From Candidatus Omnitrophota bacterium (GTDB lineage: Bacteria > Omnitrophota > Gorgyraeia > Duberdicusellales > 4484-171), in NCBI GenBank assembly GCA_003154195.1, contig PMCS01000025.1, forward strand, positions 16,662-80,661: a DNA stretch of 64,000 nucleotides, in the 5' to 3' direction. Below the pieces are notes generated by a model. It saw only the letters and a program-made list of their open reading frames with translations, was not told where the DNA came from and did not search any database. This document shows, in pieces, positions 3,676-58,486 of the stretch. A program made the translations under genes and the position numbers. How positions within the stretch are numbered: position 1 is the stretch's first letter; each line of letters starts with the position of its first letter.

Positions 3676-6600
3676 TTACGGCAGTTTGCTGTATTGTTTA
3701 AGCGGCGGCTCTTGACCGGAAATGCCTAAGGCGGTTTTAAGATCTTTTACTTCCTCCATCCCCATGATTTCTACCCGAAATCCGCCGAAGTTGTTGAAAT
3801 CAATAGATGGTAGATGATAGATAGCAGACGGTAGATTGGAAACCCCTGAAGACGCATTGATATTTTTAGTTTTTATCTGCTTATCTGACATCTGACTATC
3901 CACAGTTTTCACTTCCAGATTCAGCTTATCCGCTTTTAAATCGATACCGCCAGAGGGGCTATTCGTCGGACTTAAAGCAGAAGACGACGCTACACCATTT
4001 CGCACGGCGACCTTCGATGCTTCAAGATTTTTTTTAACTTTTTCTCTGCCCCAACTCAAATAGTTCATAACCGAACTTTTGGTAAGCTGCAAAATTTTAC
4101 CTATCTCTTTACACTTAAACCCATAAATATAATAAAGAACAAGGGACTCGCGCTCCTTGTCGGGTAATCCGCTCAGGCATCCTTCCAACTGTTCCCTTTG
4201 TATGATATTATGCTCTGTCCCCGGCGCTCGATCGATAACTTGGCGGGCAACGCCGGTCATCTGTTCGTCATCCAACGACAATACTCTATTATTGCGTTTT
4301 TTCCGCGTCCGCATTTCATCGATGCACGTGTAAATCGCTATCCTGCGCAGATACGGAAGGAATCTTCCCTTATCCTGATATGACCCTGAGCGCAGCAATT
4401 TAACTAATTTAGCAAAAATCTCTTGCACTGCGTCACTAGCTGCGTCGCTATCACCATTAAGTTGCTTAACACAGATGTTAAAAATAGCTTGCCAGTAAAG
4501 AGCATACAACTTATTAAAACACTTATCATCCCCGCTCAAAAACCCGGCAATAAGCTGCCCGGCAATCGCTTCTTGAGCATCGAAGCGCCTATACCTATCC
4601 GCCCGGCTTAACGGGCTGGATGTTTTCGGCTCAGCGCCGCCAACCGGAGCTTTGCCGCCTGATTTTTCTTTACTCCCATCTCCTTTCCCGCGTATTGCTT
4701 CTAAACCCGCCTCTGCCCGGTAATGGTCGATGTTTTCGAAAGCTTCGATTGCGGCGGCGCGGACCTGCGGGTGTTCATCATTAAGCGCGTCGCCGATTAC
4801 CCTGTTCACCTCATCAGCAACCGGCGATCGTAAATCATCTGGTTTTACTTTACCCAACGCTTCGATAACGGCAATGCGGACAACCGGGGCAGTGCCGTTG
4901 TCGTAAAATGCTTTTGCCAGGGACGGCAATGCTCTGGGATCGCGCTCTTCGCCGACACGCCACGCGGCAAGGGCGCGCTCTTGAGGGTCTCCCTCATTAT
5001 CCACAAACATCCTGCCGAGGAGTGAATCAAAAGAACCCGGTAATCCTGCGACAAGCTCTTCAAGGGATTGCCGCTTTTCGCCGGCACGACTGGGCTCCCT
5101 GCTTTGTCTTACCTGTTTTTCATCCCCTTCTCCCCTGCCGCCCCTTTTCTCCTTTTCCGAAATACTTTTCATTTCTTCTAATAATTGGCTTACCCGCCCA
5201 GGGCCTTCACTTGTATTTTCCAGTATATCCTTACTTGTTAATAGTCTTGCCCATAGCAAAAGTAAAGAATCAAGAACTTCCGGGCTATGTTCCCCGTCGC
5301 TGGTAAGCGTTACCGTAACCTCATGCTTAAATTCTACAACCAACGAAAGCAATAACCTAATATCTGTAGGTTGGTCACCCACAAGAGTAACGCTTACCCC
5401 ATTATTATTATTATTGGTAATGTGTACCGCAATATCGGAAAATGATTCTTTCATTTGGGAAGAAAATCTAGCCGCCACCGTCGAGGGCCACCCATGAATC
5501 CCCCTCGAATTCATCACCTTAATATCCAGCCAAGCTTCAACCGGGCTGGCGGCCAGCTTTACTCCTTCATACCATTTATCAACATTCGCCTGGCGCCGCG
5601 CTTTTTCTTTATCCCGGTCGATCCTGACGATGGGATAAATCCCTTCTTCTGTGCCATCAGGCCATTTTGCGATAAAGGCATTCTGGTTACCCGCGGGTAA
5701 AACTCCCTGGTAGCCGATGCCCTGCACCGGCTCATCCAGCTTGATATCACGAATATCCGTCCAGGTTCCATCGGGATGGATGACCCCGGCATGAATTTGA
5801 GCCGGCGCCTGCGCCTGAATCGTTACCGCCTCATTTTTAGGGGCCGCAAAATATATGCGAGCGGATTTATCGCTCCAAACCGGTTCCCGGGCCAACGAAG
5901 CCTCAATCGACGACCGGGCGGTCTTCTGGTACAACTTGGGAAAAAGCAAACTTAACGCGCGCAGGTTCTCAAAAATGCTCCAGGCTTGTTTATAGGCGCC
6001 GGTCTTATTGTATTCGGTTTCTAAATTATTATCTCCGCTGAATATCTCGGCAATGCCGTGAAGGTCCCTCAGCTGTTTGGCCAAACCGGAAAAATAACCT
6101 TTTTCCGCCAATAACCGAATTGTTTTTTCCCGGCCGTAAACGCGGATACAAGCCTGTATGCCGATGCCGCTTAAATGCGTCCAGACCAAACCCTGGTGAT
6201 AGGCCTCCTCCTTGTTACCGTCAGTCCGCAGAGGCTTGTATGCCGGATCATCGCGAGAAAGCGTCCGGAACCCATATACGGTAAAAAGTTCATCCATCAT
6301 TTTATCCATTATCCGTTTTGCCTGCTCGCCCTCAACCAATCCCAGAGCAACCGCCCACATCTGGTTGGGCCGAATCATCTCCGCTTCCTTGCTATCGCCG
6401 TCGATCGTATCGTAAAGGCATCCTTTTTTTTCATTCCAGTACTTGCCGAAACTTTCCTCAGCCAGTCTGGCTCGAGCCTCATAATTTTCGCGCTTTGAAC
6501 TATCGCCGGTTCTCCCGTAAATATCCGCCATCAATGACAACGCGTTCTTCCATAAAGCGTTCACCTCACCCGGTTTACCGTAACGCGGAGTGAAAATATG

Positions 6601-9600
6601 GCCGAAACCTTCTACCATCCCATCCATCCAGGTTAAATTGGTATTCTGATTTCCGCCCTTAAGCAATCCATCGGAGTCGACGGTGATATCGATATTCCTC
6701 TCTCCTTTATCGCTGTATACCAAATGGATTCCTTCTCGATGAGCGCGCATGATATCTTCTAATATTTCCAAGATTGTAGCTTTTTTTCTATCGCCGCTAA
6801 TGCCGAAAGCAAGGCTGATCGGCGTTTGTAAAAAAGCGTAGTCGCCGGTCGCCTTTAAATATTCGCCGATTGCCCAGAACATCAACATCGTCGAGTCAAT
6901 AGAACCGGGATTGACGTTTGTTCCGTCGCCGATAAAATTCGGCAATAATCCCTGTTTAACAAATCTTATGTAAGTGCACATAATATTTTTAAACGCCTCG
7001 ACATGCCCTGTAGCGAGCAACCCCGGTAAGCTGAGCATCGTATCCCGCGACCAATTACGCAAATAAGATGTGGGGCCAAAGCTGGGAAAACCGGCAACGA
7101 TTGACCAGCCGATAGCAGGATCATAGCGGTTACTGCCATCCGACAGACGGCTGACACTGAGGGTAGGGTCAAAATAAACCATATTTTCGCCGGCTTCCAT
7201 GAGCCCGGCAAAAACATTCTGCACCCGGCGGACAAACGGCAACGCGCTGTCAAACTCATTCATCCGCTCATAGGGCGGCAATACTTCGATACGGTAATCC
7301 CGGGGCTTGTGGCCATATCGCGCCTGCTCATCATGATCCCACTGCCCGGAACCAAGCCACTTAAAAGTCATCCAGTATTCACTGCCGGTTTCAAGGCCAG
7401 GCACGGCAGCGACGTATTCACCGCTCTGCGCATTGAACCGCGCTTCAATATCCCGCGCCGGTTCGCCGTGTTTTCGAATACGCAGCATAAAAGAATTTTT
7501 ATTTCTTACGACTAAAGTTTTTCCCGAAGGCATGACAAACGTATCGGTTTTATTCTTATCGGAAAATTCCCATACCGCTTCATCGGCGCCAATATTAACC
7601 GGTCCAGAGACGCTTACTTTCTTCCTTCCTCCTTCCTTCTTCACCCCTCGGTCCCCCCCGCCCTTTGACTTGGCCACCGGGCTCGACGAACTGACGCTAT
7701 AATCCGCCGCCGGATCAAGATAAAACGCGTGAACCTGAGCTGGTTCGAGGCTGAAATACAAACCTACATAATCACCGTCAACCTTTACCGTGTCGGTCCC
7801 CGGCGTAAATGTATACCTCGGGCAATCCTTCTGATCAACCGCCCGGCTCAAATCAACCAAGTCAAAAGGTTTCGTTATATCGATATTAAAATGTTTATGA
7901 TTGATCCAAAAATGACCTTGCGCCGGGTAACCGGAAAAATTTTCGACAAAGACCATCGCGCGCTTTCCATCGGGAGAATACCGCTCAACCTGTAACGCCA
8001 CCCCCCTGCCGTGTTCGCCAAGAACTTTTATGTCGGAATTCCTGGGGTTTAACATAAAAGGGAACCTCATGCGCAAATTATTGATTATCGCTAATTCCGG
8101 GACGAGGTCAACGCCGGTATCGCGCGGCGCGTACGCCCAGAGTACTTCTTCACCAGGCGCACGATTAAAATCACGGCCGTCGCCCTGTTCCCAGCCCGGC
8201 CCCGGGCTGTATGCCGCGGAAGTCGTCCCGGCAAACCACATCCCAATCCGGCAGGCAACCGCCGGCGGAACACGATAATCCAATAAGCCGAGGATTTTCG
8301 CCGCATTGCGCCAATCGTGACTGGCCATCATCATCAGATAACGGTCCTGGTCGTTGCGCCGGCCGGTCCCATCCGGCGGCCATTGATGATTGTCTAAAGC
8401 TCGGGGACCGCCTTCGCCGTCGATTAAAATATGCCGGCTTGCAATCGTGCCATCACCGCCCTCCCCCCACTTAGCCCCCCAGTTGGTGATAATCGGCATC
8501 CAGCCCCGCTGCAGCGCGTCGCGATAAAGCTTATGTATCTCCGGCGAACCTAAAAGTTCCGGCATCATCAGCCAATCGTGCTTTTTAAATTCACCGGTAA
8601 GACTATCCCAGTACCCGGGCTTATCCCTGACCTGCCAGAGCGCGTCGCCCCTCATACCGCTAAAACCAAAATATTCCAGATATGCTACGATTTCCCTTCT
8701 CACGTAATCATAATCGGAGTATATCGCTAAAGGATCCCATTTTTTGTCGCCTACCCCGGGATTTGCCCTGCCGTTATCGACCAGTACTCCGGGGTTATGG
8801 ACCGAATCCACGCCCACAATCGAAGGGGCAACCGGATAATCGATCAGCGCCCGGACATTGTGCGCCCGGGCATCATCGACTAAATCCCTGATAAATTTAT
8901 GGAGCCAGTATTGCTCAAATAAAACAAGGTTCATTAATTTCTTATAAATCGGCAGGGCGCGGATCTGTTCGTTTGAACTCTGTAATAAATCAGAAACACG
9001 GTATTGGGGAAATCTTTTTAGAATAAATTTAAGATACCCCGGCCAGCCGTCGCGCAAAATCCTTAAAACCAGCGCGTCAGCCCCTTTATTAACCCGGCCG
9101 TCAGCCAGCGTCCGCATCGGCTTTATAAAATTTTTAGCCAGCCTATCGCGATCCGTTCTTTCCCAATACTCATATTTGGCGACTAAATCATCACCCTCGC
9201 CTTCCACTTCAGCGATATCGTGATAACCGCGATTGATGATCCAGGGACTGATCGACGCGTAAGCCGAATCATCGACAATAAATTCAAAATCACCGAAACT
9301 TCCTGTAGTCTTGTATTGCGCAATCGCCACGTCGACATCACCGGCGTACTTAGCGACATTGGCTTGAGATTTACGCTTATCCCAGTGGGCGGACATGGAA
9401 ACCGGAGATAAAAGTATCGCCGTGGCTTTCGCCTCTGCCGCCGCTTTCACCAAAGCTCGACGGTTGACATGGCCTTCCCAGTTAGCCGCTTTGGGATCAG
9501 CATAACGCGACGGCCACATCTGCAAAATCGAACCAGAAGTAGGGTTCCCGGCCGAATCAAGAAGAAACCAATCCGGAACAGGAAAATCTTTGATAATATC

Positions 9601-12327
9601 TCGCGGATCGCCATATCGAACCGCCGGACTGCCGGAAACAGCTTTCTTTTTCCCGGCGGCTGATGACGCTCGGCCGGCCGGGCTGGCGGCGGCGGAAAGC
9701 GGACTGGAATTGGACTTATTTCTACCCGGCGCAATTTTAATAAAATATGCTTTCGTATAATGCCCCGCCGGAACCTTTACCGTTCCATCTGTGACTTGAC
9801 CCCATTCAGTCTGATAAAATGTCGGCTCCTCACGCATCCCATCGTCGACATGTATAGATTTTATAAAACGGAAATCAAATCCGCTTTCTTTCAATCTAAG
9901 CGCCTCCGGTAATGAATCGAAAAACCCCTCTTGCGCCTCTAATTCCGCACGCACTTCCTCTACAAATTTTCTTTTTTTTCCATTGATAGCAATGATAGCC
10001 TTATAAACCGTTTCCGGATCGGTATTCGTAAATGCTCGATAAACTGCGGCTTCCGTTGACTTATCGCCAATCTTACCGAGAGCGTTACAAGCATCTCTAC
10101 GAATCCTTGGATTATAATCCTCCAAATCTCTGAGATAACGTTTTATCTTTAATTCCTTGGTTAACGATCTCATCTCGTCAAGAGCATCGTAAGCTGCCTT
10201 ACGAACATCACTATTTTTATGCGTTAATTTCTTAGTAAAAATCGGGACAGCGCGCTTGCCAATTTTTGCCAGTTTTCTAGCTGCATCATAATCACTGCCT
10301 ATGCGCTCGCTGAAATAACTTATAGGTAAAAACAATCGCCAGCTAAAATATACTAAAGGGGGAGTGAAAAGCCCTCCCCAAAAAGCACCAGTAATATCTA
10401 ACTCCTGCACAAATTCATTCCACTGGCGTTGCCAAAACGCCTCTGAAGACTCCGACATAATATTACCAAGAGCCTTTAAGTCACGTAAGGGTTCTCCGGC
10501 AAGTATCATTTGCACAGCATGGCCACCTAAATAATGCCCGAGAATCCCGCCACCTATTATTCCCGCAATAATTGATCCCCCAATCACCCACTTTGTCACC
10601 GCCGAACTTGTTACGTTTCCCGTAAGCACCGGACCATCGCACCAACCGTCTAATTTTATCGCCTTTAAATCATAATGAACCATTGCGCCAATTTCGGCGT
10701 CAGTTAACGCAAATCTATTACGCGTAAGAGTTATACTTCTAAATAAAGAGGCGATTACAAGCGAGCCTTTTTGTTTATCATATTCTGCATTCTCTTCCGC
10801 AACATGCTTCTTCCGTCTTCCTTCTACATTCACCAGCCTTTGTCTTTCATCCCAGCGAAACGAAGGCCTCTCGCCCTTCGTTCTTTCCCCTTTCCCCTTC
10901 CATCTTTCCTCTTTCTTGCTCCGTCTCTCACCTATAGTCTGCGGGATGATTGTCCCGAGAGAAGCCTGAGAACTAACCATAGACTCACTTTCCGCATTCA
11001 TTATCCCCAACCGCGCGGTAACCACTGTAGCCTCATTATTTTTTATAGGCGAACTTGAATCCAGCGGGCTGCAGGCAACCGTAGCCTGATAATCAAAAAA
11101 CCGCGCCATACTGGCTCCGCCGCTAAAGTACCGGCGCCGGACCGGTTTCTTTGTGGACCGGTCTAAATCTTTCTTGATGTAATCATAGACGCCTTTCTTG
11201 TAGGCTTCTAAGTACTGGCTGTAGATCTTCTGCTTGATCGCCGGGTCGGAGGTTTCGATACCTTTGGTTTTATTTTTATCGAAGTACCGGCTAAAAACGT
11301 TTAGCCCGTTGGGCCTGTTTAGCCCGTTAGAAGATTTTAACCCTGCAACCGGCTCAACGGACTCAACTGACTCAACGATTTGCCGCAAGCGACGCTTAAA
11401 CCACGCCGCCAGGATCACCGCACTACATACCTGGCGCAGTTGGCTGAAATTCTTGCCGTGGTTGACGTCCTGCTCGATTAAAGGAACAACTACTTCTTTC
11501 ATGACTTGGCTGGTCAATTCGTTTAGCCCGTTGAGTCCGTTTTGCCCGTTGGGCCCGTTAGGTCTGTTAGGAGATTTTAACCCTGCAACCGGCTCAACCG
11601 GCCTAACCGTCTTAACGCTTTTTTCCATAGCAACATAATCAGCTTCCATCATGACTTTAAGCGAAGACTCTCCGATTATGGCTTTATCACTATCTTCATA
11701 GATTTGAGCTTTATTGGGGATGATCCAGATTTTGTTGAAAGTATCGAAGGGTAAATTGTTTGTGCCAAAAAGCTTACTCGCTTGCGCGTAAACTTTTTTC
11801 CAGAAATTCTTTCCGATTTCACTTTCCGGATAAGTAACGCTGGCGGATAGTTGCTTCAAAACGTAGTCCTGAGACAGTAAATCTTTCCCTAAATCAGTTT
11901 GTCCCAAAGAATCGGCAACGATTCTTTGGGACTCGTAGGGGGAAAGGTTTACCCATAATTCATCTTCGGGAATAGTCAAAGCGGCAAGAAAATAGTTTAT
12001 CAGTTTTGTCGATTCGGATTTCAGCTCGTCAGATGCCAGGTTAGAATCGCCGCGATTGATGATAAAGTCAAATTTTAAAGGGTCGCTGGGGTAGAATTTA
12101 ATGCCCAGAAGCTGGGCCGGGGTATATTCCGGGCTGAGCGAAACCAGCGATGCCGGAGCAGGCATGTAGGACAGGGCGGAGCCCGGGACGGAAGCGCGGG
12201 CGTAACCTACCCCCAGGCTTGTCCCCAGAAACGAGACCAGCAAAATCACGATGGCCAACTTGCGATAAATTATTGAATGTGGTTTAGATAGTTTAAGCAG
12301 CATTATAATCCGGCCTGCGCCAGGCAA
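3676..12327 (-). CDS. Giant multidomain protein (2883 aa): signal/TM, Asn-Gly repeats, HEAT repeats, GH13-like barrel, GDE_C amylo-alpha-1,6-glucosidase domain, HEAT repeats, C-terminal ECF sigma-70 domain
   Basis: An 8.65-kb ORF with no stop codon cannot arise by chance at this GC content. The N-terminus has a hydrophobic leader; a TM segment follows (VIGGSIIAGIIGGGILG). PBS-lyase/HEAT-like repeats are present (DVRKAAYDALDEM, NPRIRRDACNALGKIG). GH13-like regions are recognisable: VDSVHN (I), GMRGDALWQ (II), MMMASHDWRN (IV). GDE_C motifs are clear (RNWSRDTMLSLPGL, LTWMDGM). The C-terminus carries sigma-70 region 2 and region 4 (GDDKCFNKLYALYWQAIFNICVK ... LPDKERESLVLYYIYGFKCKEIGKILQLTKSSVMNYL). 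Confidence 0.8.
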   Translation of the reverse strand: MPGAGRIIMLLKLSKPHSIIYRKLAIVILLVSFLGTSLGVGYARASVPGSALSYMPAPASLVSLSPEYTPAQLLGIKFYPSDPLKFDFIINRGDSNLASDELKSESTKLINYFLAALTIPEDELWVNLSPYESQRIVADSLGQTDLGKDLLSQDYVLKQLSASVTYPESEIGKNFWKKVYAQASKLFGTNNLPFDTFNKIWIIPNKAQIYEDSDKAIIGESSLKVMMEADYVAMEKSVKTVRPVEPVAGLKSPNRPNGPNGQNGLNGLNELTSQVMKEVVVPLIEQDVNHGKNFSQLRQVCSAVILAAWFKRRLRQIVESVESVEPVAGLKSSNGLNRPNGLNVFSRYFDKNKTKGIETSDPAIKQKIYSQYLEAYKKGVYDYIKKDLDRSTKKPVRRRYFSGGASMARFFDYQATVACSPLDSSSPIKNNEATVVTARLGIMNAESESMVSSQASLGTIIPQTIGERRSKKEERWKGKGERTKGERPSFRWDERQRLVNVEGRRKKHVAEENAEYDKQKGSLVIASLFRSITLTRNRFALTDAEIGAMVHYDLKAIKLDGWCDGPVLTGNVTSSAVTKWVIGGSIIAGIIGGGILGHYLGGHAVQMILAGEPLRDLKALGNIMSESSEAFWQRQWNEFVQELDITGAFWGGLFTPPLVYFSWRLFLPISYFSERIGSDYDAARKLAKIGKRAVPIFTKKLTHKNSDVRKAAYDALDEMRSLTKELKIKRYLRDLEDYNPRIRRDACNALGKIGDKSTEAAVYRAFTNTDPETVYKAIIAINGKKRKFVEEVRAELEAQEGFFDSLPEALRLKESGFDFRFIKSIHVDDGMREEPTFYQTEWGQVTDGTVKVPAGHYTKAYFIKIAPGRNKSNSSPLSAAASPAGRASSAAGKKKAVSGSPAVRYGDPRDIIKDFPVPDWFLLDSAGNPTSGSILQMWPSRYADPKAANWEGHVNRRALVKAAAEAKATAILLSPVSMSAHWDKRKSQANVAKYAGDVDVAIAQYKTTGSFGDFEFIVDDSAYASISPWIINRGYHDIAEVEGEGDDLVAKYEYWERTDRDRLAKNFIKPMRTLADGRVNKGADALVLRILRDGWPGYLKFILKRFPQYRVSDLLQSSNEQIRALPIYKKLMNLVLFEQYWLHKFIRDLVDDARAHNVRALIDYPVAPSIVGVDSVHNPGVLVDNGRANPGVGDKKWDPLAIYSDYDYVRREIVAYLEYFGFSGMRGDALWQVRDKPGYWDSLTGEFKKHDWLMMPELLGSPEIHKLYRDALQRGWMPIITNWGAKWGEGGDGTIASRHILIDGEGGPRALDNHQWPPDGTGRRNDQDRYLMMMASHDWRNAAKILGLLDYRVPPAVACRIGMWFAGTTSAAYSPGPGWEQGDGRDFNRAPGEEVLWAYAPRDTGVDLVPELAIINNLRMRFPFMLNPRNSDIKVLGEHGRGVALQVERYSPDGKRAMVFVENFSGYPAQGHFWINHKHFNIDITKPFDLVDLSRAVDQKDCPRYTFTPGTDTVKVDGDYVGLYFSLEPAQVHAFYLDPAADYSVSSSSPVAKSKGGGDRGVKKEGGRKKVSVSGPVNIGADEAVWEFSDKNKTDTFVMPSGKTLVVRNKNSFMLRIRKHGEPARDIEARFNAQSGEYVAAVPGLETGSEYWMTFKWLGSGQWDHDEQARYGHKPRDYRIEVLPPYERMNEFDSALPFVRRVQNVFAGLMEAGENMVYFDPTLSVSRLSDGSNRYDPAIGWSIVAGFPSFGPTSYLRNWSRDTMLSLPGLLATGHVEAFKNIMCTYIRFVKQGLLPNFIGDGTNVNPGSIDSTMLMFWAIGEYLKATGDYAFLQTPISLAFGISGDRKKATILEILEDIMRAHREGIHLVYSDKGERNIDITVDSDGLLKGGNQNTNLTWMDGMVEGFGHIFTPRYGKPGEVNALWKNALSLMADIYGRTGDSSKRENYEARARLAEESFGKYWNEKKGCLYDTIDGDSKEAEMIRPNQMWAVALGLVEGEQAKRIMDKMMDELFTVYGFRTLSRDDPAYKPLRTDGNKEEAYHQGLVWTHLSGIGIQACIRVYGREKTIRLLAEKGYFSGLAKQLRDLHGIAEIFSGDNNLETEYNKTGAYKQAWSIFENLRALSLLFPKLYQKTARSSIEASLAREPVWSDKSARIYFAAPKNEAVTIQAQAPAQIHAGVIHPDGTWTDIRDIKLDEPVQGIGYQGVLPAGNQNAFIAKWPDGTEEGIYPIVRIDRDKEKARRQANVDKWYEGVKLAASPVEAWLDIKVMNSRGIHGWPSTVAARFSSQMKESFSDIAVHITNNNNNGVSVTLVGDQPTDIRLLLSLVVEFKHEVTVTLTSDGEHSPEVLDSLLLLWARLLTSKDILENTSEGPGRVSQLLEEMKSISEKEKRGGRGEGDEKQVRQSREPSRAGEKRQSLEELVAGLPGSFDSLLGRMFVDNEGDPQERALAAWRVGEERDPRALPSLAKAFYDNGTAPVVRIAVIEALGKVKPDDLRSPVADEVNRVIGDALNDEHPQVRAAAIEAFENIDHYRAEAGLEAIRGKGDGSKEKSGGKAPVGGAEPKTSSPLSRADRYRRFDAQEAIAGQLIAGFLSGDDKCFNKLYALYWQAIFNICVKQLNGDSDAASDAVQEIFAKLVKLLRSGSYQDKGRFLPYLRRIAIYTCIDEMRTRKKRNNRVLSLDDEQMTGVARQVIDRAPGTEHNIIQREQLEGCLSGLPDKERESLVLYYIYGFKCKEIGKILQLTKSSVMNYLSWGREKVKKNLEASKVAVRNGVASSSALSPTNSPSGGIDLKADKLNLEVKTVDSQMSDKQIKTKNINASSGVSNLPSAIYHLPSIDFNNFGGFRVEIMGMEEVKDLKTALGISGQEPPLKQYSKLP
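11300..11617 (-). repeat. Internal duplicated segment (two ~90-bp copies, 11300-11387 and 11521-11617) inside the giant gene, encoding (N-G-x)n repeats
   Basis: A 9-bp-periodic NNNNCCGTT run is followed by the shared core ttag(a/g)agattttaaccctgcaaccggctcaac(c)gg. It translates to VEPVAGLKS.N..NG.NGLN, which occurs twice. Confidence 0.8.
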
Positions 12328-42611: not shown

Positions 42612-43310
42612 TCAACCAATGCGGTCTTTTTTGGAGTAAAGGCGGCCTATATCGTAAGGGGATACTCTAAACTTAGTGCCATGATTACGTAGCCCTTTGC
42701 TTTCTGGCTTAGCTTCTCTTACGTCAAAATCTATCTTAACCGTTCCGCGGACAACTTCATCAATGAAAGAGCTTAATTCAAGGTTTTCGTAAGAATCAGC
42801 GCGATTGTAAACAATTTTTTGCCCTGTTCTTACACCTTTTACTAAAATCAAGCGGCGTAATTTGGCTCCCGCCGAGCTCATAATATCATCATCAGTCCAA
42901 TAAGGAACCGCGCCGTTTCCGTCAAGTCGGCGAATTATTATCTGGTGAGAATCTGCTTCTACTTTGAACCTATCTGATTTGCCCGCTATGGTATGTCTAA
43001 AGCTAAGACGTCCCATATCGTCTTTCCATCCCCATTTACTAACCATAAGCCTAATAACATTATCGGGGCGTGGCTCTTTGTGGAATAGAGTAATAAGGTT
43101 TGTTTTTTCTGTATAAAATTTTAATTCCCATCCAAGAGTATCAGGAATATCTTTATTACCTGTTCTTAATCCAAGAAGGTCTTCGAGGTAAAGTCCAGGG
43201 GCCCCTGTTCCGATATATCGCTTATCGGGCATTATGTATTCTTTATGCTGAATAATTTCGGAAATTCGTGCAAACAGCTCTTTTTTTGTTGTTGGAGCTA
43301 TGATACTCAT
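42612..43310 (-). CDS. Putative type II restriction endonuclease (cargo of IS)
   Basis: 232 aa with no recognisable conserved domain. It overlaps the upstream DNA methyltransferase by 4 bp and lies inside the mobile cassette. The assignment rests on position only. Confidence 0.45.
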   Translation of the reverse strand: MSIIAPTTKKELFARISEIIQHKEYIMPDKRYIGTGAPGLYLEDLLGLRTGNKDIPDTLGWELKFYTEKTNLITLFHKEPRPDNVIRLMVSKWGWKDDMGRLSFRHTIAGKSDRFKVEADSHQIIIRRLDGNGAVPYWTDDDIMSSAGAKLRRLILVKGVRTGQKIVYNRADSYENLELSSFIDEVVRGTVKIDFDVREAKPESKGLRNHGTKFRVSPYDIGRLYSKKDRIG

Positions 43311-44122
43311 TTTTTAAGTAACCTCCCCTGGGCTTCAATGCGTTCCCTTGCTAATTTGCAATAATCTTTTGATAGTTCAAGACCTACCCAATCTCTTCCA
43401 CATACTTCGGCGGCAATAGCCGTAGTGCCCGAACCCATAAAGGGATCGAGAACAATTTTTCCCGTAGTAGACTGAATACATCTTTGCGCCAATTCAACAG
43501 GAAAGGGCGCAGGGTGAGGATTATTATTTTCTTGAGGAATAATCCACACGTCCCCCACGGCATTAGCCTTTGGCGCAAGTTTAAAATTAGGCTTGCATAT
43601 AAGATAGATAACTTCATAAGTGGGAAGAAAATACCCAGAATTAAAATTTATGCCGCCGTTACGTTTCCAAATAATGATTTGCCGAATCGGAAATCCCTGA
43701 ACAATATCATGCCGGTCTTGCATTACGCCGCCTTGAACCCGCCATTTATGATTGTAGAATATCGCTCCATCCTCCCGTAAAACTCTCATCATCGCAGTAA
43801 GGCAATTTCTTTGCCATTCAACATATTCATCGTGGGGCATATCGTCATTATGATTTTCATAACCATTTACAAGCTGAGCATTTTTCCATTTACCGCCTCG
43901 CGGGTCTTTCATTCCATTGCCGGTGCTATTCCGAAGATTATAGGGGGGGGAGGTAACAATTAAGTCTATTGACCCTGTAGGCATTTTGTTCATCAACGCA
44001 AGGCTGTCCCCACAATGAACTTTATTAAGCCATTGCTTCAAAACATTGGGAGAAATCGTCTTGGTGGCGGCTTTTAAAAGTTGGCTAAAAGTAGCAGCAA
44101 CAGAGAAAGGTTTTGTAATCAT
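43307..44122 (-). CDS. DNA methyltransferase, beta-class (N4-cytosine/N6-adenine; SPPY catalytic motif)
   Basis: DLIVTSPPYNL (motif IV) precedes DPFMGSGTTAIAA (motif I), which is the beta-class order. A poly-C8 tract encodes the S-P-P residues. Confidence 0.85.
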   Translation of the reverse strand: MITKPFSVAATFSQLLKAATKTISPNVLKQWLNKVHCGDSLALMNKMPTGSIDLIVTSPPYNLRNSTGNGMKDPRGGKWKNAQLVNGYENHNDDMPHDEYVEWQRNCLTAMMRVLREDGAIFYNHKWRVQGGVMQDRHDIVQGFPIRQIIIWKRNGGINFNSGYFLPTYEVIYLICKPNFKLAPKANAVGDVWIIPQENNNPHPAPFPVELAQRCIQSTTGKIVLDPFMGSGTTAIAAEVCGRDWVGLELSKDYCKLARERIEAQGRLLKK

Positions 44123-45030
44123 GCGATTAACCCTTTATACGATAGGCGTCTTCCTGCTACTGATTCTAACAGATAATTTAATCGTTCGCAACCTTTCATT
44201 TCGGCCATGCCAAAACGCGTTTCAAACTCTGATAAATAACGGTGCAGATGTTTCCAGCTTAAATGATGGAATGTTCCGTAATAACCACGTTTTAACAATG
44301 CCCAAAAAGATTCCATACCGTTCGTATGAGCTTGCCCGCGGACATACTCACCCATAGAATGATTAACGCTGTAATGGTTATAGTCTTTAATTCCGAGGTA
44401 AGAACGATGGTCATCTGTGTAAAGAGTTGTTCCTGTTGCAACATTTTCTTGTATAAAATTATGCAATTCATTCTTTTCAGTATTCGGAACCATCTTAATT
44501 TTAACCCTGCCAGACCTTTCACGTATTCCAGCTACAGCCTGTTTCCCTGCTGGCCCACGGCCCAAATCAGACTTTTTATTAAAATGTTTATTTTTCTCTT
44601 TACCTCCAAGATAAGTTTCGTCAGCTTCGACAGTTCCACTTAACGGGCCACCAGTTGCACCCATTCCCTCGGCTACATCACGAAGACGACCTAACATGAA
44701 CCATGCTGTTTTTTGCGTTACGCCTATTTCCCGCGCTAATTGGCAACTGCTGATACCTTTACGATTGCTGGTGATGAGCCATGCGGCAGAAAACCATTTG
44801 CGAAGCGGTAAACGGCTTTCTTCAAAAATAGTTCCCTTGCGAACGGAAAATGTCTTATTACAATCGGCGCATTTATAGACATAACACCGTTTGATATGAT
44901 GTATCTTTCGGCTGCTTCCGCAACAAGGACACACTATCCCGGTGGGCCAACGTAAACTTTCGAGGTGTTTGATGCAAGATTCTTCGGTAGGAAATTTCTT
45001 CATTAAATCGTAAAGACTATTCGCTTCCAT
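44119..45030 (-). CDS. IS1595-family (ISXO2-like) transposase
   Basis: N-terminal zinc ribbon CPCCGS...CADCNKTFS and a DDE domain. The protein is 303 aa. Its stop overlaps the methyltransferase start (ATGA). Confidence 0.85.
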   Translation of the reverse strand: MEANSLYDLMKKFPTEESCIKHLESLRWPTGIVCPCCGSSRKIHHIKRCYVYKCADCNKTFSVRKGTIFEESRLPLRKWFSAAWLITSNRKGISSCQLAREIGVTQKTAWFMLGRLRDVAEGMGATGGPLSGTVEADETYLGGKEKNKHFNKKSDLGRGPAGKQAVAGIRERSGRVKIKMVPNTEKNELHNFIQENVATGTTLYTDDHRSYLGIKDYNHYSVNHSMGEYVRGQAHTNGMESFWALLKRGYYGTFHHLSWKHLHRYLSEFETRFGMAEMKGCERLNYLLESVAGRRLSYKGLIA

Positions 45031-46124: not shown

Positions 46125-47126
46125 TTAACGCGATTCCATTCGGATATCGAAAACACCGTTGATTAAGGAAATTCTCTTCTTTCGCACAATCTGATTATTT
46201 TCTTTATCCATAGTTTGGATTAATTTAATAATATCTTGATTGCCCGCCGCTTGCGCGATGTCCCGCGCATTCTTGCCATCTTTATTTTTTCGCTCCACAT
46301 CGGCTCCATTTTTTATCAAAATATCGGCAATCTCTTTTTGATTATTATGGCAAGCATACATCAGGGCTGTCCAACCGCTACTGTTTGACTCATCAAGATA
46401 TACGTGCTGATCGCTAAGAAGTAATTTCACAATATCCTCATGGCCTTCGCGAACGGCTAATGCCAACGGAGCGTTGCCGGTCATCGGATCGCCTCCCCCC
46501 TTACCTGTGCTATTGGCGCTGGCTTTATTCGCCATAAGAATTTTCACTATTTCTGTATACCCATTCTGTGCGGCAATTTGCAATGGGGTTAAAGCCGGTA
46601 TGTCTCTTCCATAAAATAAGCTCGGGTTTATGTCCGGCTTTACGCCGTTTTTCAATAGCCGTTTAACTTTTTCTAAATTATTTTGTTCTACGGCGGCTAC
46701 TAAACTACTATATAATTTTTTCGCAATATCCAATTTTGCCCTTATTAATTTTATCGCCTCATTAGGGCCGGTATTATCGGCGCCAATTGAATAATAAACA
46801 AAAGGATCACCAGCCTGGACATCGGCGCCTTTATCTAATAAATAATTAACTATATCAAGGTGCCCCGCGAAAGCGGCAGCCACTAAGGCTGTCTGGCCTT
46901 TAGAAGTAGCATAATTTACATCGGTGCCTTGCTCAACTAAAGATTTGACTTCGGCTAATTGGCCTTTTTCAGCGGGTAGTACCAGGTTATGGCGTGGCGC
47001 CTTGTCAAATAACTCGGCGTTATTTTTTTTACCATACCCCGCAGAAGGCCCACTAAGGCTAACCAAAATTATTAAGCCAAATAATTGCAAAATCTTTTTC
47101 ATTATTTTTTCCCCATCTTGCCACAA
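46125..47126 (-). CDS. Secreted ankyrin-repeat protein
   Basis: A signal peptide (probable start Met9 at 47102) and at least 5 ANK repeats (GQTALVAAAFAGHLDIVNYLLDKGADV, TPLQIAAQNGYTEIVKILM, WTALMYACHNNQKEIADILIKNGADV). Confidence 0.85.
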   Translation of the reverse strand: MWQDGEKIMKKILQLFGLIILVSLSGPSAGYGKKNNAELFDKAPRHNLVLPAEKGQLAEVKSLVEQGTDVNYATSKGQTALVAAAFAGHLDIVNYLLDKGADVQAGDPFVYYSIGADNTGPNEAIKLIRAKLDIAKKLYSSLVAAVEQNNLEKVKRLLKNGVKPDINPSLFYGRDIPALTPLQIAAQNGYTEIVKILMANKASANSTGKGGGDPMTGNAPLALAVREGHEDIVKLLLSDQHVYLDESNSSGWTALMYACHNNQKEIADILIKNGADVERKNKDGKNARDIAQAAGNQDIIKLIQTMDKENNQIVRKKRISLINGVFDIRMESR

Positions 47127-50294: not shown

Positions 50295-51050
50295 TTATAT
50301 TATCTCCAGCTCTTCCTTCCTGATCCACCCCAGTTTTCCGTCCAATCGCTTGACCTTAAGCCACTGGCCTTTATCTTCGACTAAAATAACTTTTTCGCCG
50401 CCGTAAATCGTAAAATGGGTGACGGCGGCGTTACCAGGCTCAAATTTAACGTTAGCCTTCTCCGCGATAATAACCGCTTCTTTGCCGAACAGTTGGGAAC
50501 GCGAAAATAAATCATAAATACCCAGGCCCATCAAAAGAAAAAGCGCGGCGGCGAGGTAAAAAAACTGTTTTTTAAAAGCCGGTAAAAATAACCGCCCGGC
50601 CAGCAACGAAAACAATAAAATATTAAGTATGGCGATAAAAATCGCCAAACCATCCGGCGCGAATGAAGCGTATAGCCAGTCGATAAACTTTTCGAGGTTA
50701 TTCTTCTCGCCGGTTTTATAGCTTTGGGTAAGCTGGCTGATAACCAATTCATGATTAGAATTCAAATCGGCGTCGGACGGCGCAAGCCGCCGGGCGCGTT
50801 CGTAAAAAAGCGCGGCCCGCGGAAAATCGCTTTTTTTATAAAAGCAATTTCCTATATTGTAATAAAGATTAGCGCTCTCATACCCTTTGCCCGCGATGTC
50901 GGAATACAACTTCAGGGCATTATCATATTTACCTTCCTCATAATAAAGATTGGCGCGATAAAACCCTGTTTTGTCTATACCGGATTGGGCATGGGCCGAC
51001 GCACATAATAAAAATACTGCGATAATTGCTGTCGGGATAAACGTCTTCAC
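50295..51050 (-). CDS. batE: BatE-like protein (TPR + TM + bacterial SH3 domain)
   Basis: TPR repeats, a TM segment, and a C-terminal SH3b domain (GQWLKVKRLDGKLGWIRKEEL). It is the last gene of the Bat operon. Confidence 0.7.
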   Translation of the reverse strand: MKTFIPTAIIAVFLLCASAHAQSGIDKTGFYRANLYYEEGKYDNALKLYSDIAGKGYESANLYYNIGNCFYKKSDFPRAALFYERARRLAPSDADLNSNHELVISQLTQSYKTGEKNNLEKFIDWLYASFAPDGLAIFIAILNILLFSLLAGRLFLPAFKKQFFYLAAALFLLMGLGIYDLFSRSQLFGKEAVIIAEKANVKFEPGNAAVTHFTIYGGEKVILVEDKGQWLKVKRLDGKLGWIRKEELEII

Positions 51051-52879
51051 TTTAATCTCCTCTCGCTGTAATCAATAATCTTTTTTACCGTTTTTAAATC
51101 TTCTTTCATCGAGGCTGGCTCAAACTGCTGCGACGAAAAACGCGCCATATCGCATTGCCCGAAGATATGTTTTAACGAATCGATAATTTCCTTATCCCAT
51201 CCTTTACTTTCCAACAGGCCGGCGATATCGACGGTGATACCGCGCCAGGGAAGGCGCAGTTTATAACCGAGATATTGCTGCAGGGTCTTAAACAATGTCT
51301 CGTAGAATTCCCTGGATTTACTGTCGGATAAAAATGCTGCCGCCGTTTTAAGGCCCTTGGCGGCAACGGACGGCGCTTTAAGTTTTTTCGCGTAAGCGTC
51401 GTCTACCATCAACCGCCGGTAATGCTTGTTGATCAGGGAAACGATAACAAAGCACAGCAGGGGCAGAAATTGCAAAAGCCAGAAAATCCTGTTTTTAAAA
51501 AGATAATGCCCTTTTTTTCTTAACGCCCCGGCTAAATCCTTAATATAAATGATGTCCCGGCCCAAAACCTGGGTAACGGTTGTTTTTTGCGTTGCGGGAT
51601 TTTGTTCGACGATTTTTTGTGTTTCCGCTCTTCCCTTACTTACAGTAATAGGAAACGGCCCTTTTTCGATGGTCGAATAACGGCCGTCGGCGGTATTAAA
51701 AAAACTAAACGATATCCCGGGGATGGCGGTAACTTTTTCGGTTTTAGGCATCACGACATATTCAAAAATCTTAGAATTTTCGCCGTTGGTTATCCTCGGC
51801 TCATAAACCTTAAAATCATTTTCGCTTAAACCCAAACCGGGGGTGGTTACGGTATCAAAATTACCCTTGCCGCTTACAGCAAGTCTTAATGTTATCGGAT
51901 CGCCCACGCTTACCTCGGGGGGGCCGGCCTGCGCGTCCAGGTTAAATCCGCCGATTGCGCCGTTAAAATTTGCCGGTTTATTTTCTTCCGGCAAGGGGGA
52001 AACGACCACGCCGACGCCGGCGGCATCCAGGTTTAACGGCTGTGTCCTGGCCGCGCCGAAAAAATCCTCAAAAAGGCTGTCGTCAATAAGACCGTCAAAA
52101 GCGCCGAACGAAGGCAGCCTTCTTTGCCTCTCCGGTTTCACCATAAGATAGCATTCAAAATTAGCCGGGCCAAGCGACAACTCGCCTGATTTGACGGCAA
52201 AAGTTTCCACGCTAAAATCTACCACATCATAGTAAACCCCGTTGAGCATGTCTTTATATTGCCGGGGCTGGCTGAACTGCGCCAGAGAAAAACCATCATG
52301 GCTAATCTGCGGCACCCCGCCGCGGGACAATCTGATATCTAAATCCTTCACGTATAATTTTATCGAAAGGTTAAACTTTTCATTAATATACACCTTACGT
52401 TTTTCCGGCTGGATCACTAAAAATATCTTATCGCCGATGTTCTTAGCCTCGGCCCGGCTCTCCTCTCCTTCGCGGTTATTAACATTAGCGGGCGAAGCGG
52501 GTTTATCAACCACTTCGATAGTTATCGCGTTGGAAGTATATTGTTTATCTTTGTAGTCGACGGTAAACGGCCCGATGTTAAAAGTGCCGGTTTTAACCGC
52601 CGCGAGCAGATAGGCATGGCTTACGGAAGCAGAAGATTTGCCGTTGATAATGGTTAAATTTGACGACGGGCCGAGATAGCGGCTGCTGCTGAAACCGTCA
52701 ACCGTTCCCAAATCTGGCGCCGGAAGGTCCTGCGCCCCCTCAAAATTTAAACTGAGATAAATCCCGTCGCCCAACACGACCTTTTCCTTATCCACAGAAA
52801 GGGTCAAGCTCTCCGCCGGCGCCGTACCGCACAACAATCCCGAAATAAACAACAAGGTAATTACTTTCTTCATATTCAC
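51047..52879 (-). CDS. batD: BatD-like oxygen-tolerance protein
   Basis: 610 aa. It has a signal peptide, a large periplasmic domain and a TM segment near residue 460. It follows batC in the operon. Confidence 0.6.
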   Translation of the reverse strand: MNMKKVITLLFISGLLCGTAPAESLTLSVDKEKVVLGDGIYLSLNFEGAQDLPAPDLGTVDGFSSSRYLGPSSNLTIINGKSSASVSHAYLLAAVKTGTFNIGPFTVDYKDKQYTSNAITIEVVDKPASPANVNNREGEESRAEAKNIGDKIFLVIQPEKRKVYINEKFNLSIKLYVKDLDIRLSRGGVPQISHDGFSLAQFSQPRQYKDMLNGVYYDVVDFSVETFAVKSGELSLGPANFECYLMVKPERQRRLPSFGAFDGLIDDSLFEDFFGAARTQPLNLDAAGVGVVVSPLPEENKPANFNGAIGGFNLDAQAGPPEVSVGDPITLRLAVSGKGNFDTVTTPGLGLSENDFKVYEPRITNGENSKIFEYVVMPKTEKVTAIPGISFSFFNTADGRYSTIEKGPFPITVSKGRAETQKIVEQNPATQKTTVTQVLGRDIIYIKDLAGALRKKGHYLFKNRIFWLLQFLPLLCFVIVSLINKHYRRLMVDDAYAKKLKAPSVAAKGLKTAAAFLSDSKSREFYETLFKTLQQYLGYKLRLPWRGITVDIAGLLESKGWDKEIIDSLKHIFGQCDMARFSSQQFEPASMKEDLKTVKKIIDYSERRLK

Positions 52880-52957
52880 TTTTTCGTATTTTCTTACAAC
52901 ATAAAAATTTTAGCCTTTTTTCGCGATACAAGTTTTTAAAAGGGGTAAAATTTTTAT

Positions 52958-53965
52958 TCACCAATCCTTCTGCGGCTCCGGGTATTCTCCTGTTTCCCGG
53001 GTACGGTTATCCACCGTGCCCCAATATTCTTCGTTGTCGCGATAGCCGTCTAAAAGCATACGGGCCTCCTGCTTCGACATCTCCTTGGCCGTTTCCTCAG
53101 CCGCCGGCTTTTCGGAAGTTTTATTTCCCGCGTCTTTCGTTTCTTTATTATCTTGTGCTGTCTGCTTTTTATCGGTTTCGTTATTTTTATCCTCTTCCTC
53201 GGCCTGATTTTTCTGCTCCATCGACTGACCTTTATTTTTTTGTGTTTCCTCCGGATTTTGTTTATCCGCCTTGCCGTTATTTTTTTTATCGGCCAGGTTA
53301 GGGCTTTGCTTTGGCGGCTGCCGTTTTAATCTCTTGATGAGTAATTTTAACTTTTTATCGGTTAGTTCATAATTATACCTCGCGTCTTTATCTTTAGGCG
53401 ATAATTCTATCGTTTTAGCATAATGGTTAAGCGAATCCTTCAAAAGATTAATCGCGCCGTTTATATCGGTTTTTTCTTTAGCGACGGCTGATTTAAATTT
53501 ACTGTCGGCAAGATTAAAAGCGGCTTTCGCCTCCAAACCTTTTTTATCCGTAGCCAGCACCCTGGTAAAAAACTGGGCGGCTTTTTCGTAATCGCCTTTT
53601 TTATACCATGCCGCGCCGGTATTGAAATTAACGATATCGGAAACCCCGGAATCATCACCGGCTTTCTGATATTGCCCCAGGGCATCGTCAAACTTTCCTC
53701 GCCGGTAAAATTCATTACCCTTAGCGATCGCGCCGGCCGGCGACGCGGCAAAACAATCCGCCGCGCTCAACAATATAAAGAAAAAAAATAAAGACAAAAA
53801 ATACTTTGTCCACAGATTTCGCAGATTGCTCGGATTATAGCCCGAAAAGAATAAAGAATAAATTATCCCTGCGTTGAAACGCGAAATATTTAAGTTATAG
53901 CTTTTCATAAAAGCAAGATATTTTTGGTTCATGTTTTTCCAAAAAATCTGTGACAATCTGAGCAA
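52958..53965 (-). CDS. batC: BatC-like TPR protein with Lys/Glu-rich tail
   Basis: TPR repeats plus an acidic/basic low-complexity C-terminus. The annotated N-terminus runs through repeat element A3; the true start is probably the TTG near 53804 (..SLFFFFILLSAADCFAAS signal). Confidence 0.6.
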   Translation of the reverse strand: MLRLSQIFWKNMNQKYLAFMKSYNLNISRFNAGIIYSLFFSGYNPSNLRNLWTKYFLSLFFFFILLSAADCFAASPAGAIAKGNEFYRRGKFDDALGQYQKAGDDSGVSDIVNFNTGAAWYKKGDYEKAAQFFTRVLATDKKGLEAKAAFNLADSKFKSAVAKEKTDINGAINLLKDSLNHYAKTIELSPKDKDARYNYELTDKKLKLLIKRLKRQPPKQSPNLADKKNNGKADKQNPEETQKNKGQSMEQKNQAEEEDKNNETDKKQTAQDNKETKDAGNKTSEKPAAEETAKEMSKQEARMLLDGYRDNEEYWGTVDNRTRETGEYPEPQKDW

Positions 53966-53972
53966 TCTGTCC
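53808..53972. repeat. Inverted-repeat element, family A copy 3 (165 bp) in the batB-batC spacer
   Basis: gtccacagatttcgcagattgctcggatt is inverted relative to aaatctgtgacaatctgagcaatctgtcc. Confidence 0.75.
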
Positions 53973-54069
53973 CGGTACCCTTTATAACAATATTAAGGTG
54001 CGGGACGCCCCGAACATTAATAGATTATTCAGGGTAACGGGGCTGTGGACAATATTCTTTGTTTTTTAT

Positions 54070-55089: not shown

Positions 55090-55106
55090 ATAGTTCTGTT
55101 ATGCGC

Positions 55107-56099: not shown

Positions 56100-56114
56100 A
56101 GTATGATTTTTTGA

Positions 56115-56244
56115 CCACGAAAATCACGAAATACACGAAAAATTTAACCAATCAGAAAAGTTAAATGCAAAATGTGAAGCAATCTTTAGTTCAAAATCTA
56201 ATAGTAATCTCTTCTCGTTTTCGTGTGTTTCGCATTTTTCGTGG
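56115..56244. repeat. Inverted-repeat element, family B (CCACGAAAATCACGAAATACACGAAAAAT termini)
   Basis: Left arm 56115-56143 and right arm 56214-56244 are inverted. Internal AATCT motifs are present. Confidence 0.7.
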
Positions 56245-56291
56245 TAGAAAATATTTTTGTTTTTTTATCTATTTTTTATAAAAAATGACTC

Positions 56292-57350: not shown

Positions 57351-57390
57351 CTCTCATCCCTCATCCTTCTATTTTTCTCTTCTCTCTCGC

Positions 57391-58269: not shown

Positions 58270-58280
58270 ATTTTTATACG

Positions 58281-58482
58281 CAGATGACCGCTGATTTAAA
58301 ATCAACAGATAATCACAGATAATTAAAAATTCCCGTTTTATAAATAAAAACCGGGAAAATACCAATTATCAAAATCCTGGCTGCCCAAATATTAATAATT
58401 GTGGACATTATGATTTATTTAATATTTTGGGATTTTATCATTTATCAGCGATCATCCGCTGCATCTAATCAGCGGTCATCTG
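58281..58482. repeat. MITE-like element, family C (16-bp perfect TIR CAGATGACCGCTGATT)
   Basis: cagatgaccgctgatt (58281-58296) is inverted relative to aatcagcggtcatctg (58467-58482). The 202-bp element fills the moxR-DUF58 spacer. Confidence 0.8.
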
Positions 58483-58486
58483 TGCT

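Follow-up and report, generated by a model that had tools for sequence, protein, structure and literature searches.

A GH77-like barrel precedes a prokaryotic-type GDE_C domain in a giant protein of Omnitrophota: a candidate analogue of the eukaryotic indirect debranching enzyme

INTRODUCTION

Indirect debranching by a single polypeptide (indirect debranching enzyme [iDBE], GH13_25-GH133) has been described as specific to eukaryotes (PMC7965971); the bacterial GDEs that have been described display alpha-1,6-glucosidase activity only, and bacteria employ either a direct GlgX-type enzyme or a stand-alone GH133 enzyme (PMC11046441). Here we analyze a 64,000-nucleotide stretch of DNA, referred to as the window, from a Candidatus Omnitrophota bacterium (GenBank assembly GCA_003154195.1, contig PMCS01000025.1, positions 16,662 to 80,661 of the forward strand), in which one gene encodes a giant multi-domain protein with a glucanotransferase-type barrel of clan GH-H located upstream of a GDE_C domain, the order found in eukaryotic GDE. 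We consider it somewhat better than an even chance (a probability of roughly 0.55) that residues ~906 to 2120 of this protein constitute an analogue of the indirect debranching enzyme that arose by convergence and was assembled in bacteria, with a predicted function in the debranching of a glycogen-like glucan.

The eukaryotic GDE/AGL/Gdb1 proteins (GH13_25 plus GH133; PMC4837477 and PMC7965971) share with the window protein a barrel that is N-terminal to GH133 and the GC Asp and Glu residues, but the window barrel belongs to a different GH-H family, the M1/M2 region (hGDE_central) is absent, and the pair forms a cassette in a protein of 2.9 thousand amino acids (kaa) that also carries HEAT repeats and a sigma factor. 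The archaeal-type GDE_N+GDE_C enzymes (TIGR01561; PDB 7vma) possess a GDE_C domain to which that of the window is 30 to 36% identical, with four key acidic residues invariant; the window protein, in contrast, has no GDE_N, and its GDE_C is fused behind a transferase-like barrel. The 4-alpha-glucanotransferases of family GH77 (MalQ and plant DPE1) have the same clan GH-H barrel, with alignable S-P-Y, D-x-P, Q-x-W, R-x-D, E-x-L-G, and (T/S)-H-D positions, whereas the window copy falls below every hidden Markov model (HMM) threshold, and the family to which it belongs has a domain C and is always found in megaproteins. Subdomains B1 to B3 have been listed for GH77 structures (PMC8465469). GlgE (GH13_3) shares the fold, the profile of alpha8 and domain C, and the region II pattern R-x-D-x-x-H, but the window barrel has neither the N-terminal nor the S domain of GlgE, and its N-terminal two thirds are GH77-like.

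Giant multi-enzyme proteins containing HEAT repeats, glycogen-synthase-like GT5, glycolytic enzymes, and PPDK_N have been reported from Omnitrophota (bioRxiv 10.1101/2023.11.21.568195). These "Archaeovorins" resemble the window protein in their HEAT repeats, their transmembrane anchor, and their strings of unrelated enzyme domains, including glycogen-related ones and PPDK_N, but they exceed 30 kaa. GH77-like, GDE_C, and sigma factor modules are not mentioned in the main text of the Omnitrophota giant-gene papers, and no account of a GH77-GH133 fusion came to light in our searches of the literature.

RESULTS

Layout of the cassette

An earlier note, made from the sequence alone, had placed a GH13-like barrel and, immediately after it, GDE_C between positions 5700 and 9100 of the window, joined by a Gly/Lys-rich linker in the manner of eukaryotic AGL. 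Fold, Pfam assignment, and domain order all bear out a glucanotransferase-type clan GH-H barrel ahead of GDE_C in one bacterial giant protein, the linker is present (Table 1), and the motifs quoted (VDSVHN, GMRGDALWQ, and ASHDWRN) lie where they were placed, all in one reading frame. The barrel begins at about residue 906, however, some 500 bases beyond the upper bound that had been given, and GDE_C does not follow at once, since a beta-rich stretch of ~160 residues succeeds the linker. This spacer was modelled as beta strands with a predicted local distance difference test score (pLDDT) of <50; it drew no Pfam match at E ≤ 10 other than a chance-level HTH_68 (E 0.092). The spacer was tried as a GDE_N domain and rejected, there being no alignment with the GDE_N of 28 GDE_N+GDE_C proteins. 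By eye it might be read as CBM48-like, in the same low-confidence part of the model.

Table 1. Features of the giant protein and their positions in the window (residues are counted from the TTG at 12327; aa, amino acids)
Feature	Residues	Window position	Strand	Remarks
Gene for 2,875-aa multi-domain protein		3676..12303	-	Single open reading frame (ORF)
N-terminal module of ~400 aa behind signal-like helix	23-426	11050-12261	-	41% identity with P0002, 35% with P0003
SSP[VIL] copies	425, 874, 1548, 2570	11044-11055, 9697-9708, 7675-7686, 4609-4620	-	
SSPL	874-877	9697..9708	-	Upstream of barrel module
Divergent GH77-like/clan GH-H catalytic domain	906-1545	7693..9612	-	(beta/alpha)8 barrel plus C-terminal beta-sandwich
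Beta3 Asp in I-D-Y-P (equivalent of GH77 D213 and GH13 region I Asp)	D1163	8839..8841	-	D-x-P invariant in 8/8
VDSVHN	1173	8794-8811	-	
GMRGDALWQ	1224	8632-8658	-	
Predicted nucleophile Asp, end of beta4 (GMRGDALWQ)	R1226-G-D1228	8644..8652	-	R and D invariant
Predicted general acid/base, end of beta5 (MMPELLG)	E1257	8557..8559	-	Invariant
ASHDWRN	1335	8305-8325	-	
Predicted transition-state stabilizer pair after beta7 (ASHD)	H1337-D1338	8314..8319	-	H-D invariant
Beta-sandwich domain C	1431-1537	7717..8037	-	Eight model strands, pLDDT 81-93
Ser/Gly/Lys-rich linker	1546-1577	7597..7692	-	Opens with junction motif SSSSPV; SSSSPVAKSKGGGDRGVKKEGGRKKVSVSGPV
Spacer	1578-1737	7117..7596	-	First ~115 residues predicted beta-rich
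GDE_C/GH133 amylo-alpha-1,6-glucosidase (alpha/alpha)6 domain	1738-2120	5968..7116	-	PF06202
Equivalent of CgGDE catalytic D1241 (LTWMD)	D1902	6622..6624	-	
Equivalent of CgGDE catalytic E1492 (GIAEIFSGD)	E2094	6046..6048	-	Aligned to GLAELTNKDG
Complete ECF-type sigma-70 domain, regions 2 and 4	2590-2770	4018-4560	-	TIGR02937, 83.6 bits (cutoff, 42.9)

A rare barrel family between GH77 and GH13

A word-indexed protein search returned no match either with the barrel or with the family alignment, and HMMER, run exhaustively over 1.84 billion cluster representatives, yielded eight proteins, the window protein included; the others are P0002 (37% identity), P0003 (31%), and, as more weakly matching relatives, the five proteins P0004 to P0008. 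Scanning of metagenomes returned the contig of P0006 itself and a single new, ninth member, L085; a scan of genome contigs with three family sequences found no relative. All members are multi-domain proteins, from 1,000 to >5,700 aa in length, and two of them, P0004 and P0008, from Candidatus Omnitrophota and Endomicrobiales, are named "MAG: 4-alpha-glucanotransferase, partial" by NCBI (MAG, metagenome-assembled genome). The window protein, P0002, and P0003 form a subgroup with an insertion of ~30 aa after beta2.

When the eight domains were scanned singly, Pfam Glyco_hydro_77 (PF02446) was matched by all except the window copy (7/8; best E, 9e-17), and the full proteins P0003, P0005, P0006, P0008, and L085 scored above the GH77 cutoff (27.6 to 49.3 bits, against 25), the matches spanning only model positions ~10 to 280 of 465. 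Alpha-amylase (PF00128) was matched by one of the eight members (E 0.017; no match for the window barrel) and hDGE_amylase (PF14701) likewise by one (E 0.27). A profile built from the eight domains retrieved clan GH-H enzymes only from the PDB: the GH13 enzyme AmyB (4gkl; 1e-8), GlgE (5cgm; 2e-8) through its C-terminal part, and the GH77 enzyme 6m6t (2e-7) through the SPY, QYF, DxPI, and RID regions. The AlphaFold2 model obtained from the eight-sequence alignment (pLDDT 76.9; predicted template modelling score, 0.82) is a (beta/alpha)8 barrel followed by an eight-strand beta-sandwich; Foldseek matched it to 299 PDB entries at E ≤ 1e-3, with GlgE best (3e-13; TM score, ~0.5), followed by GH13 amylases and cyclodextrin glucanotransferases and then by GH77 amylomaltases and DPE1 (~1e-8 to 1e-7). 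The clan GH-H fold with domain C was recovered against GlgE and GH13 amylases at E 1e-13 to 1e-8, and the match is far beyond chance in the family scan, the PDB profile search, Foldseek, and hhalign. Domain C itself resembled, by profile, the C-terminal region of GlgE (5cgm, residues 519 to 667), and in two of the eight members it matched Pfam GLGE_C weakly (E 0.006).

The N-terminal two thirds of the barrel domain are GH77-like and the C-terminal third (alpha8 and domain C) is GH13/GlgE-like, and the family is a new, very rare lineage intermediate between GH77 and GH13; we hold the domain identities of the barrel and of GDE_C to be nearly certain. The GH13, AGL-like assignment that had been suggested for the barrel gives way to this one, as GH77 is recognized in seven of the eight members and eukaryotic GDE appears neither among the best 60 PDB profile matches of the barrel nor among its best 50 Foldseek matches.

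Predicted catalytic residues of the barrel

In the eight-way alignment, S1021, Y1023, D1163, P1165, W1197, R1226, D1228, E1257, G1260, H1337, and D1338 are invariant. An hhalign comparison of the family with Escherichia coli MalQ (taken from NC_000913) gave a probability of 91.8% and an E value of 7e-7 over 436 columns, and it paired RID448 with RGD1228, GE496DLG with PE1257LLG, and ATHD548 with SHD1338; D448, E496, and D548 of MalQ are what we take to be its catalytic triad. The Asp/Glu/Asp triad of GH77 is therefore represented in the alignment by D1228, E1257, and D1338. Other alignments agree: D1163 (model strand 254-260) falls on DMVLNH of the GH13 enzyme 4gkl and GDMPI of the GH77 enzyme 6m6t, R1226-G-D1228 (strand 319-323) on GFRCD of 4gkl and RIDH of 6m6t, and E1257 (strand 348-352) on LFLSEA of GlgE, and H1337-D1338 follow a beta7 that occupies model positions 426 to 428. 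The predicted catalytic residues thus lie at the C-terminal ends of beta3, beta4, beta5, and beta7 in the model, which is the canonical GH-H geometry. The active site of Thermus thermophilus GH77 comprises D293, E340, and D395 together with Y59, D213, R291, H394, W258, L342, and G343 (PMC8465469). Each of these has an invariant counterpart in the barrel family, the aligned positions being S57/Y59, D213, W258, R291/D293, E340/L342/G343, and H394/D395; GH77 H294 and D341 are not kept. The equivalent of region I is I-D-Y-P-V-A, with no Asn-His and hence no GH13 D-x-x-x-N-H pattern, and VDSVHN, which had been quoted as part of the GH13-like region, is not the counterpart of GH13 region I; it corresponds in the profile alignments to the GH77 "DSAEVW" stretch, region I being the beta3 segment around D1163.

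The residues that follow the nucleophile were correctly noted to be non-canonical. Six relatives carry R-x-D-A-[WFL]-H-[FY], most of them reading DAWHF, where the window has DALWQ and P0002 has DAWPE. That catalysis may be altered or lost had been suggested on this basis, with the barrel possibly acting as a glucan-binding or sensing module, and in such a scheme it would report glucan status to regulatory modules such as the C-terminal sigma factor of the extracytoplasmic function (ECF) type. The scheme draws on the failure of the window copy with all family HMMs, on the third position after the nucleophile, where six of the eight have His but the window has Trp and P0002 has Pro, on the loss of the Pro of SPY, and on the company that the barrel keeps, the same chain ending in a complete ECF sigma factor and L085 containing a GerE helix-turn-helix (HTH). 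Pseudo-enzymes usually lose at least one catalytic position, however, and the window copy retains every residue that the family conserves, with R1226, D1228, E1257, and H1337-D1338 invariant in all eight members and aligned to the MalQ triad; the catalytic residues of its GDE_C partner are intact as well. We regard a non-catalytic barrel as improbable. The changes after the nucleophile are genuine and belong to the second shell; together with the loss of the Pro of SPY in the window and P0002, they argue for altered subsite binding in place of a loss of the catalytic machinery.

The identity of the reaction is a separate matter. Both domains could be active on alpha-glucans while the barrel catalyzes something other than disproportionation, as a GlgE-like maltosyltransferase, an amylase, or another GH-H enzyme, in which case the pair would not perform classical indirect debranching. 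The best structural matches and the C-terminal third are indeed of the GlgE type, R-x-D-A-W-H of the family aligns with R-V-D-N-P-H of GlgE, two GH77 active-site residues are missing as stated above, and to our knowledge canonical GH77 enzymes have no domain C. The N-terminal two thirds, on the other hand, bear the GH77 hallmarks SPY, D-x-P-I, Q-x-W, E-x-L-G, and T/S-H-D, GH77 is the sole Pfam model passed above threshold, and genes of the maltose-1-phosphate pathway were not seen among the neighbours scanned. A barrel of this other kind seems to us unlikely, if less so than a non-catalytic one.

A GDE_C domain of the prokaryotic type

The second domain is recognized without difficulty: PF06202 is matched with an E value of 1.3e-70 and 238.6 bits (cutoff, 21) over model positions 13 to 364 of 367. 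Both phmmer and a four-sequence profile align it with Candida glabrata GDE (profile E, 6e-48), and the model, with a pLDDT of 80 to 97 over residues ~1759 to 2140, has C. glabrata and human GDE as its best Foldseek matches (E 3e-18; TM score, 0.62). The catalytic Asp and Glu are both kept (D1902 and E2094), as are the auxiliary aspartates D1762, equivalent to CgGDE D1078, and D1811, equivalent to ScGDE D1147, and none of the four varies when the domain is aligned with bacterial homologues (30 sequences). The catalytic roles of CgGDE D1241 and E1492 have been demonstrated by mutagenesis (PMC4837477).

The prokaryotic model TIGR01561 scored 138 bits (cutoff, 364) and the eukaryotic model TIGR01531 70.9 bits (cutoff, 1399.55), the latter in the GC part only. 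Among the 120 best relatives of the domain, almost all are GDE_N+GDE_C proteins of ~660 aa, and PF02446 occurs in none of them; GDE_N (PF12439) was not matched in the window protein. To judge by its sequence, the domain is of the prokaryotic type and has lost its GDE_N. The stand-alone, GDE_C-only relatives P0013 and P0014 have no barrel gene adjoining them; the gene upstream is not matched by the barrel profile and, on visual inspection, resembles an RNA methyltransferase.

Descent of the whole layout from eukaryotic GDE, or transfer to or from it, is very improbable on this evidence. The domain order is the same and the best solved structures for GDE_C are those of the yeast and human enzymes, a weak argument given how few prokaryotic GH133 structures exist. 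Against whole-length GH13_25-GH133 homology stand the single faint hDGE_amylase match among the eight barrels, the absence of hGDE_N and hGDE_central at E ≤ 1 over the whole protein, the TIGR01531 score far beneath its cutoff, the absence of eukaryotic GDE from the best sequence and fold matches of the barrel in the PDB, and the bacterial origin of the nearest GDE_C relatives. The resemblance to AGL that had been pointed out is one of layout and does not extend to descent.

Recurrence of the domain order and integrity of the frame

A barrel followed by GDE_C in one frame is found in five of the nine family members, namely, the window protein, P0006, P0007, P0008, and L085. In P0008 the two are separated by ~200 aa, and its GDE_C is 40% identical to that of the window. 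P0002, P0003, and P0005 carry the barrel without GDE_C, and P0004 ends at a contig edge. The family domain is embedded in a multi-domain megaprotein in every case. Because the fixed order recurs across proteins that otherwise share almost nothing, we argue that barrel and GDE_C are functionally coupled.

At the L085 locus (ORJL011200954.1, 1-13698), a stop-free frame runs across the whole 13.7 kb (>4,566 aa) and contains PPDK_N and PEP-utilizers, the GH77-like barrel abutting GDE_C, several methyltransferases, and the GerE HTH. The dikinase-type module beside glucan enzymes recalls, speculatively, the glucan-water dikinases.

The minus-strand ORF at 3676..12327 comprises 2883 codons counted from a TTG; the ATG at 12303, which is residue 9 in the numbering used here, is the likely start codon and would give a product of 2,875 aa. 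A protein identical to residues 9 to 2883 (P0011) is recorded on four contigs (NCBI, JGI/IMG, Logan, ENA, GEM), the longest of 118 kb. In a single ENA assembly of the same organism, the protein is divided near residue 2250 (window ~5560 to 5600), with P0001 (2244 aa) on one side and P0012 (600 aa) on the other, which could be taken to mean that an assembly or annotation artefact has joined separate genes and that the organism has no such fusion. We give this explanation very little credence: the identical product comes from independent sources, with the ORF intact on the four other contigs, the split lies downstream of both the barrel and GDE_C, and four other proteins, from different samples, have the same barrel-then-GDE_C order in one frame. 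The split reflects either a mistake in that assembly or a frameshift at the level of the strain.

Other modules of the giant protein

Pfam HEAT repeats were found at residues ~735 to 781 and 2480 to 2533 of the whole protein. The ECF sigma domain near the C terminus is preceded by HEAT repeats and a Lys/Gly-rich linker, and it is very unusual for a sigma factor to be extended N-terminally by ~2,580 aa. Hydrophobic segments comprise a signal-like helix at residues 24 to 42, a Gly-rich segment at 580 to 598, and a third, seen by eye, at ~640 to 665. We favour a cytoplasmic location for the residues above 666 because a strongly basic flank follows the third hydrophobic segment and a sigma factor is present. 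The ~400-aa module behind the signal-like helix matched no family in Pfam, NCBIfam, or the PDB; within it, the sequence VEPVAGLKS-N-(R)PNG is repeated, at residues 244 and 324. At the other end of the protein, the last ~100 residues (window 3676-3990) form a tail (GGI[DG]LK … NF-GF) that is weakly similar in the window protein, P0002, and P0003. The enzyme modules look like variable cargo carried between conserved N- and C-terminal ends.

Residues 2262 to 2360 (window 5248-5544, minus strand) are HPr-like by eye (…NSRGIHGWPSTVAARF…), with a His aligned to HPr His15, and P0007 has a similar stretch; Pfam and the PDB gave no support for HPr in this region, and the hhalign probability against E. 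coli HPr was only 27%.

A repeated motif at module borders

The string SSP[VIL] occurs four times in the window protein, where 0.16 copies are expected; L085, whose unrelated-looking open frame spans 4,566 aa, has 11 copies (~0.16 expected). In neither protein did any of 2000 shuffles reach the observed count. The 43 remaining ORFs of the window, with 15,345 aa in total, contain a single copy; in them the motif is about 20-fold rarer. Nearly all copies in both proteins lie at module borders; one copy stands between barrel and GDE_C in the window protein and none there in L085. Other junction strings are repeated elsewhere in the family, with SSILRPR present twice in P0005 and SPQGTSPEA twice in P0007. 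This distribution suggests that the motif may represent processing or modification sites or recombination scars.

Genomic context

The MoxR protein of the window is 76 to 79% identical to those of Candidatus Omnitrophota MAGs, and a neighbouring aminotransferase was found in JGI samples 3300038473, 3300014490, and 3300038628, the first two of which are from peat. The neighbours scanned encode a P-type ATPase, two-component systems, tetratricopeptide repeat and ankyrin proteins, a Bat/MoxR operon, and an IS1595 transposase. The IS1595-family transposase adjoins an N6/N4 DNA methylase; these genes, an ankyrin-repeat protein, and the aerotolerance-type Bat/MoxR operon with BatD, VWA, and AAA_3 MoxR lie at window positions 43307-45030, 46125-47126, and 50295-59482, all on the minus strand. 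Nearly all genes of the window are on that strand, and the GC skew is steadily negative.

DISCUSSION

We suggest that the barrel is a divergent GH77-type 4-alpha-glucanotransferase that would operate by the clan GH-H retaining mechanism, with D1228 as the nucleophile, E1257 as the acid/base, and D1338 as the stabilizer. Acting on a glycogen-like glucan, it would shift the alpha-1,4 chain off a short branch, and the GH133 domain, through D1902 and E2094, would then hydrolyze the alpha-1,6-linked glucose stub that remained. Both domains look catalytically competent from their conserved residues, and the cassette is probably active. The pairing would have been built from two prokaryotic components, namely, the GH77-like barrel and a GDE_C of the prokaryotic type that has lost its GDE_N, and would therefore be a convergent analogue and not a homologue of the eukaryotic GH13_25-GH133 enzyme. 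The cassette is one component of the modular megaproteins found in Omnitrophota and in uncultured bacteria related to them.

Several observations weigh against this proposal. The window barrel taken alone (residues 906 to 1545) has no Pfam match even at E ≤ 10 and no PDB sequence match; confidence in the model is low at H1337-D1338 (pLDDT ~46 to 57) and below 50 in several active-site loops; and second-shell changes are found only in the window protein and P0002, SPY having become SAY and, in the window, DAWHF having become DALWQ. Barrel and GDE_C are ~190 aa apart in the window protein, with the linker and its junction motif plus the ~160-aa spacer between them, whereas they abut in P0006, P0007, and L085, and the barrel can work without GDE_C, as P0002, P0003, and P0005 indicate. 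No genes for glycogen synthesis or phosphorylase were present among the neighbours scanned, and an extracellular substrate is possible in view of the signal-like N-terminal helix and the one or two further hydrophobic segments.

A more ambitious picture, which we offer tentatively and consider improbable as a whole, is that the protein belongs to a class of modular "enzyme trains" in Omnitrophota and bacteria related to them, with [ST]SSP[VIL] marking the boundaries between modules as a possible site of polyprotein cleavage or of modification. Here an independently arisen GH77-like plus GH133 cassette would be joined physically with a membrane anchor, a phosphocarrier-like module, and an ECF sigma factor, so that glucan turnover might be wired to transcription or modules might be released on demand.

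Should the barrel prove inactive, it would instead join the few documented pseudo-enzymes of clan GH-H, in this case one linked to a sigma factor. If the proposal of an active debranching cassette is correct, it would represent a second, convergent invention of two-step debranching logic, it would define a new, very rare family intermediate between GH77 and GH13 that current HMMs barely see, and it would provide a biochemical handle on the opaque multi-enzyme megaproteins of Omnitrophota.

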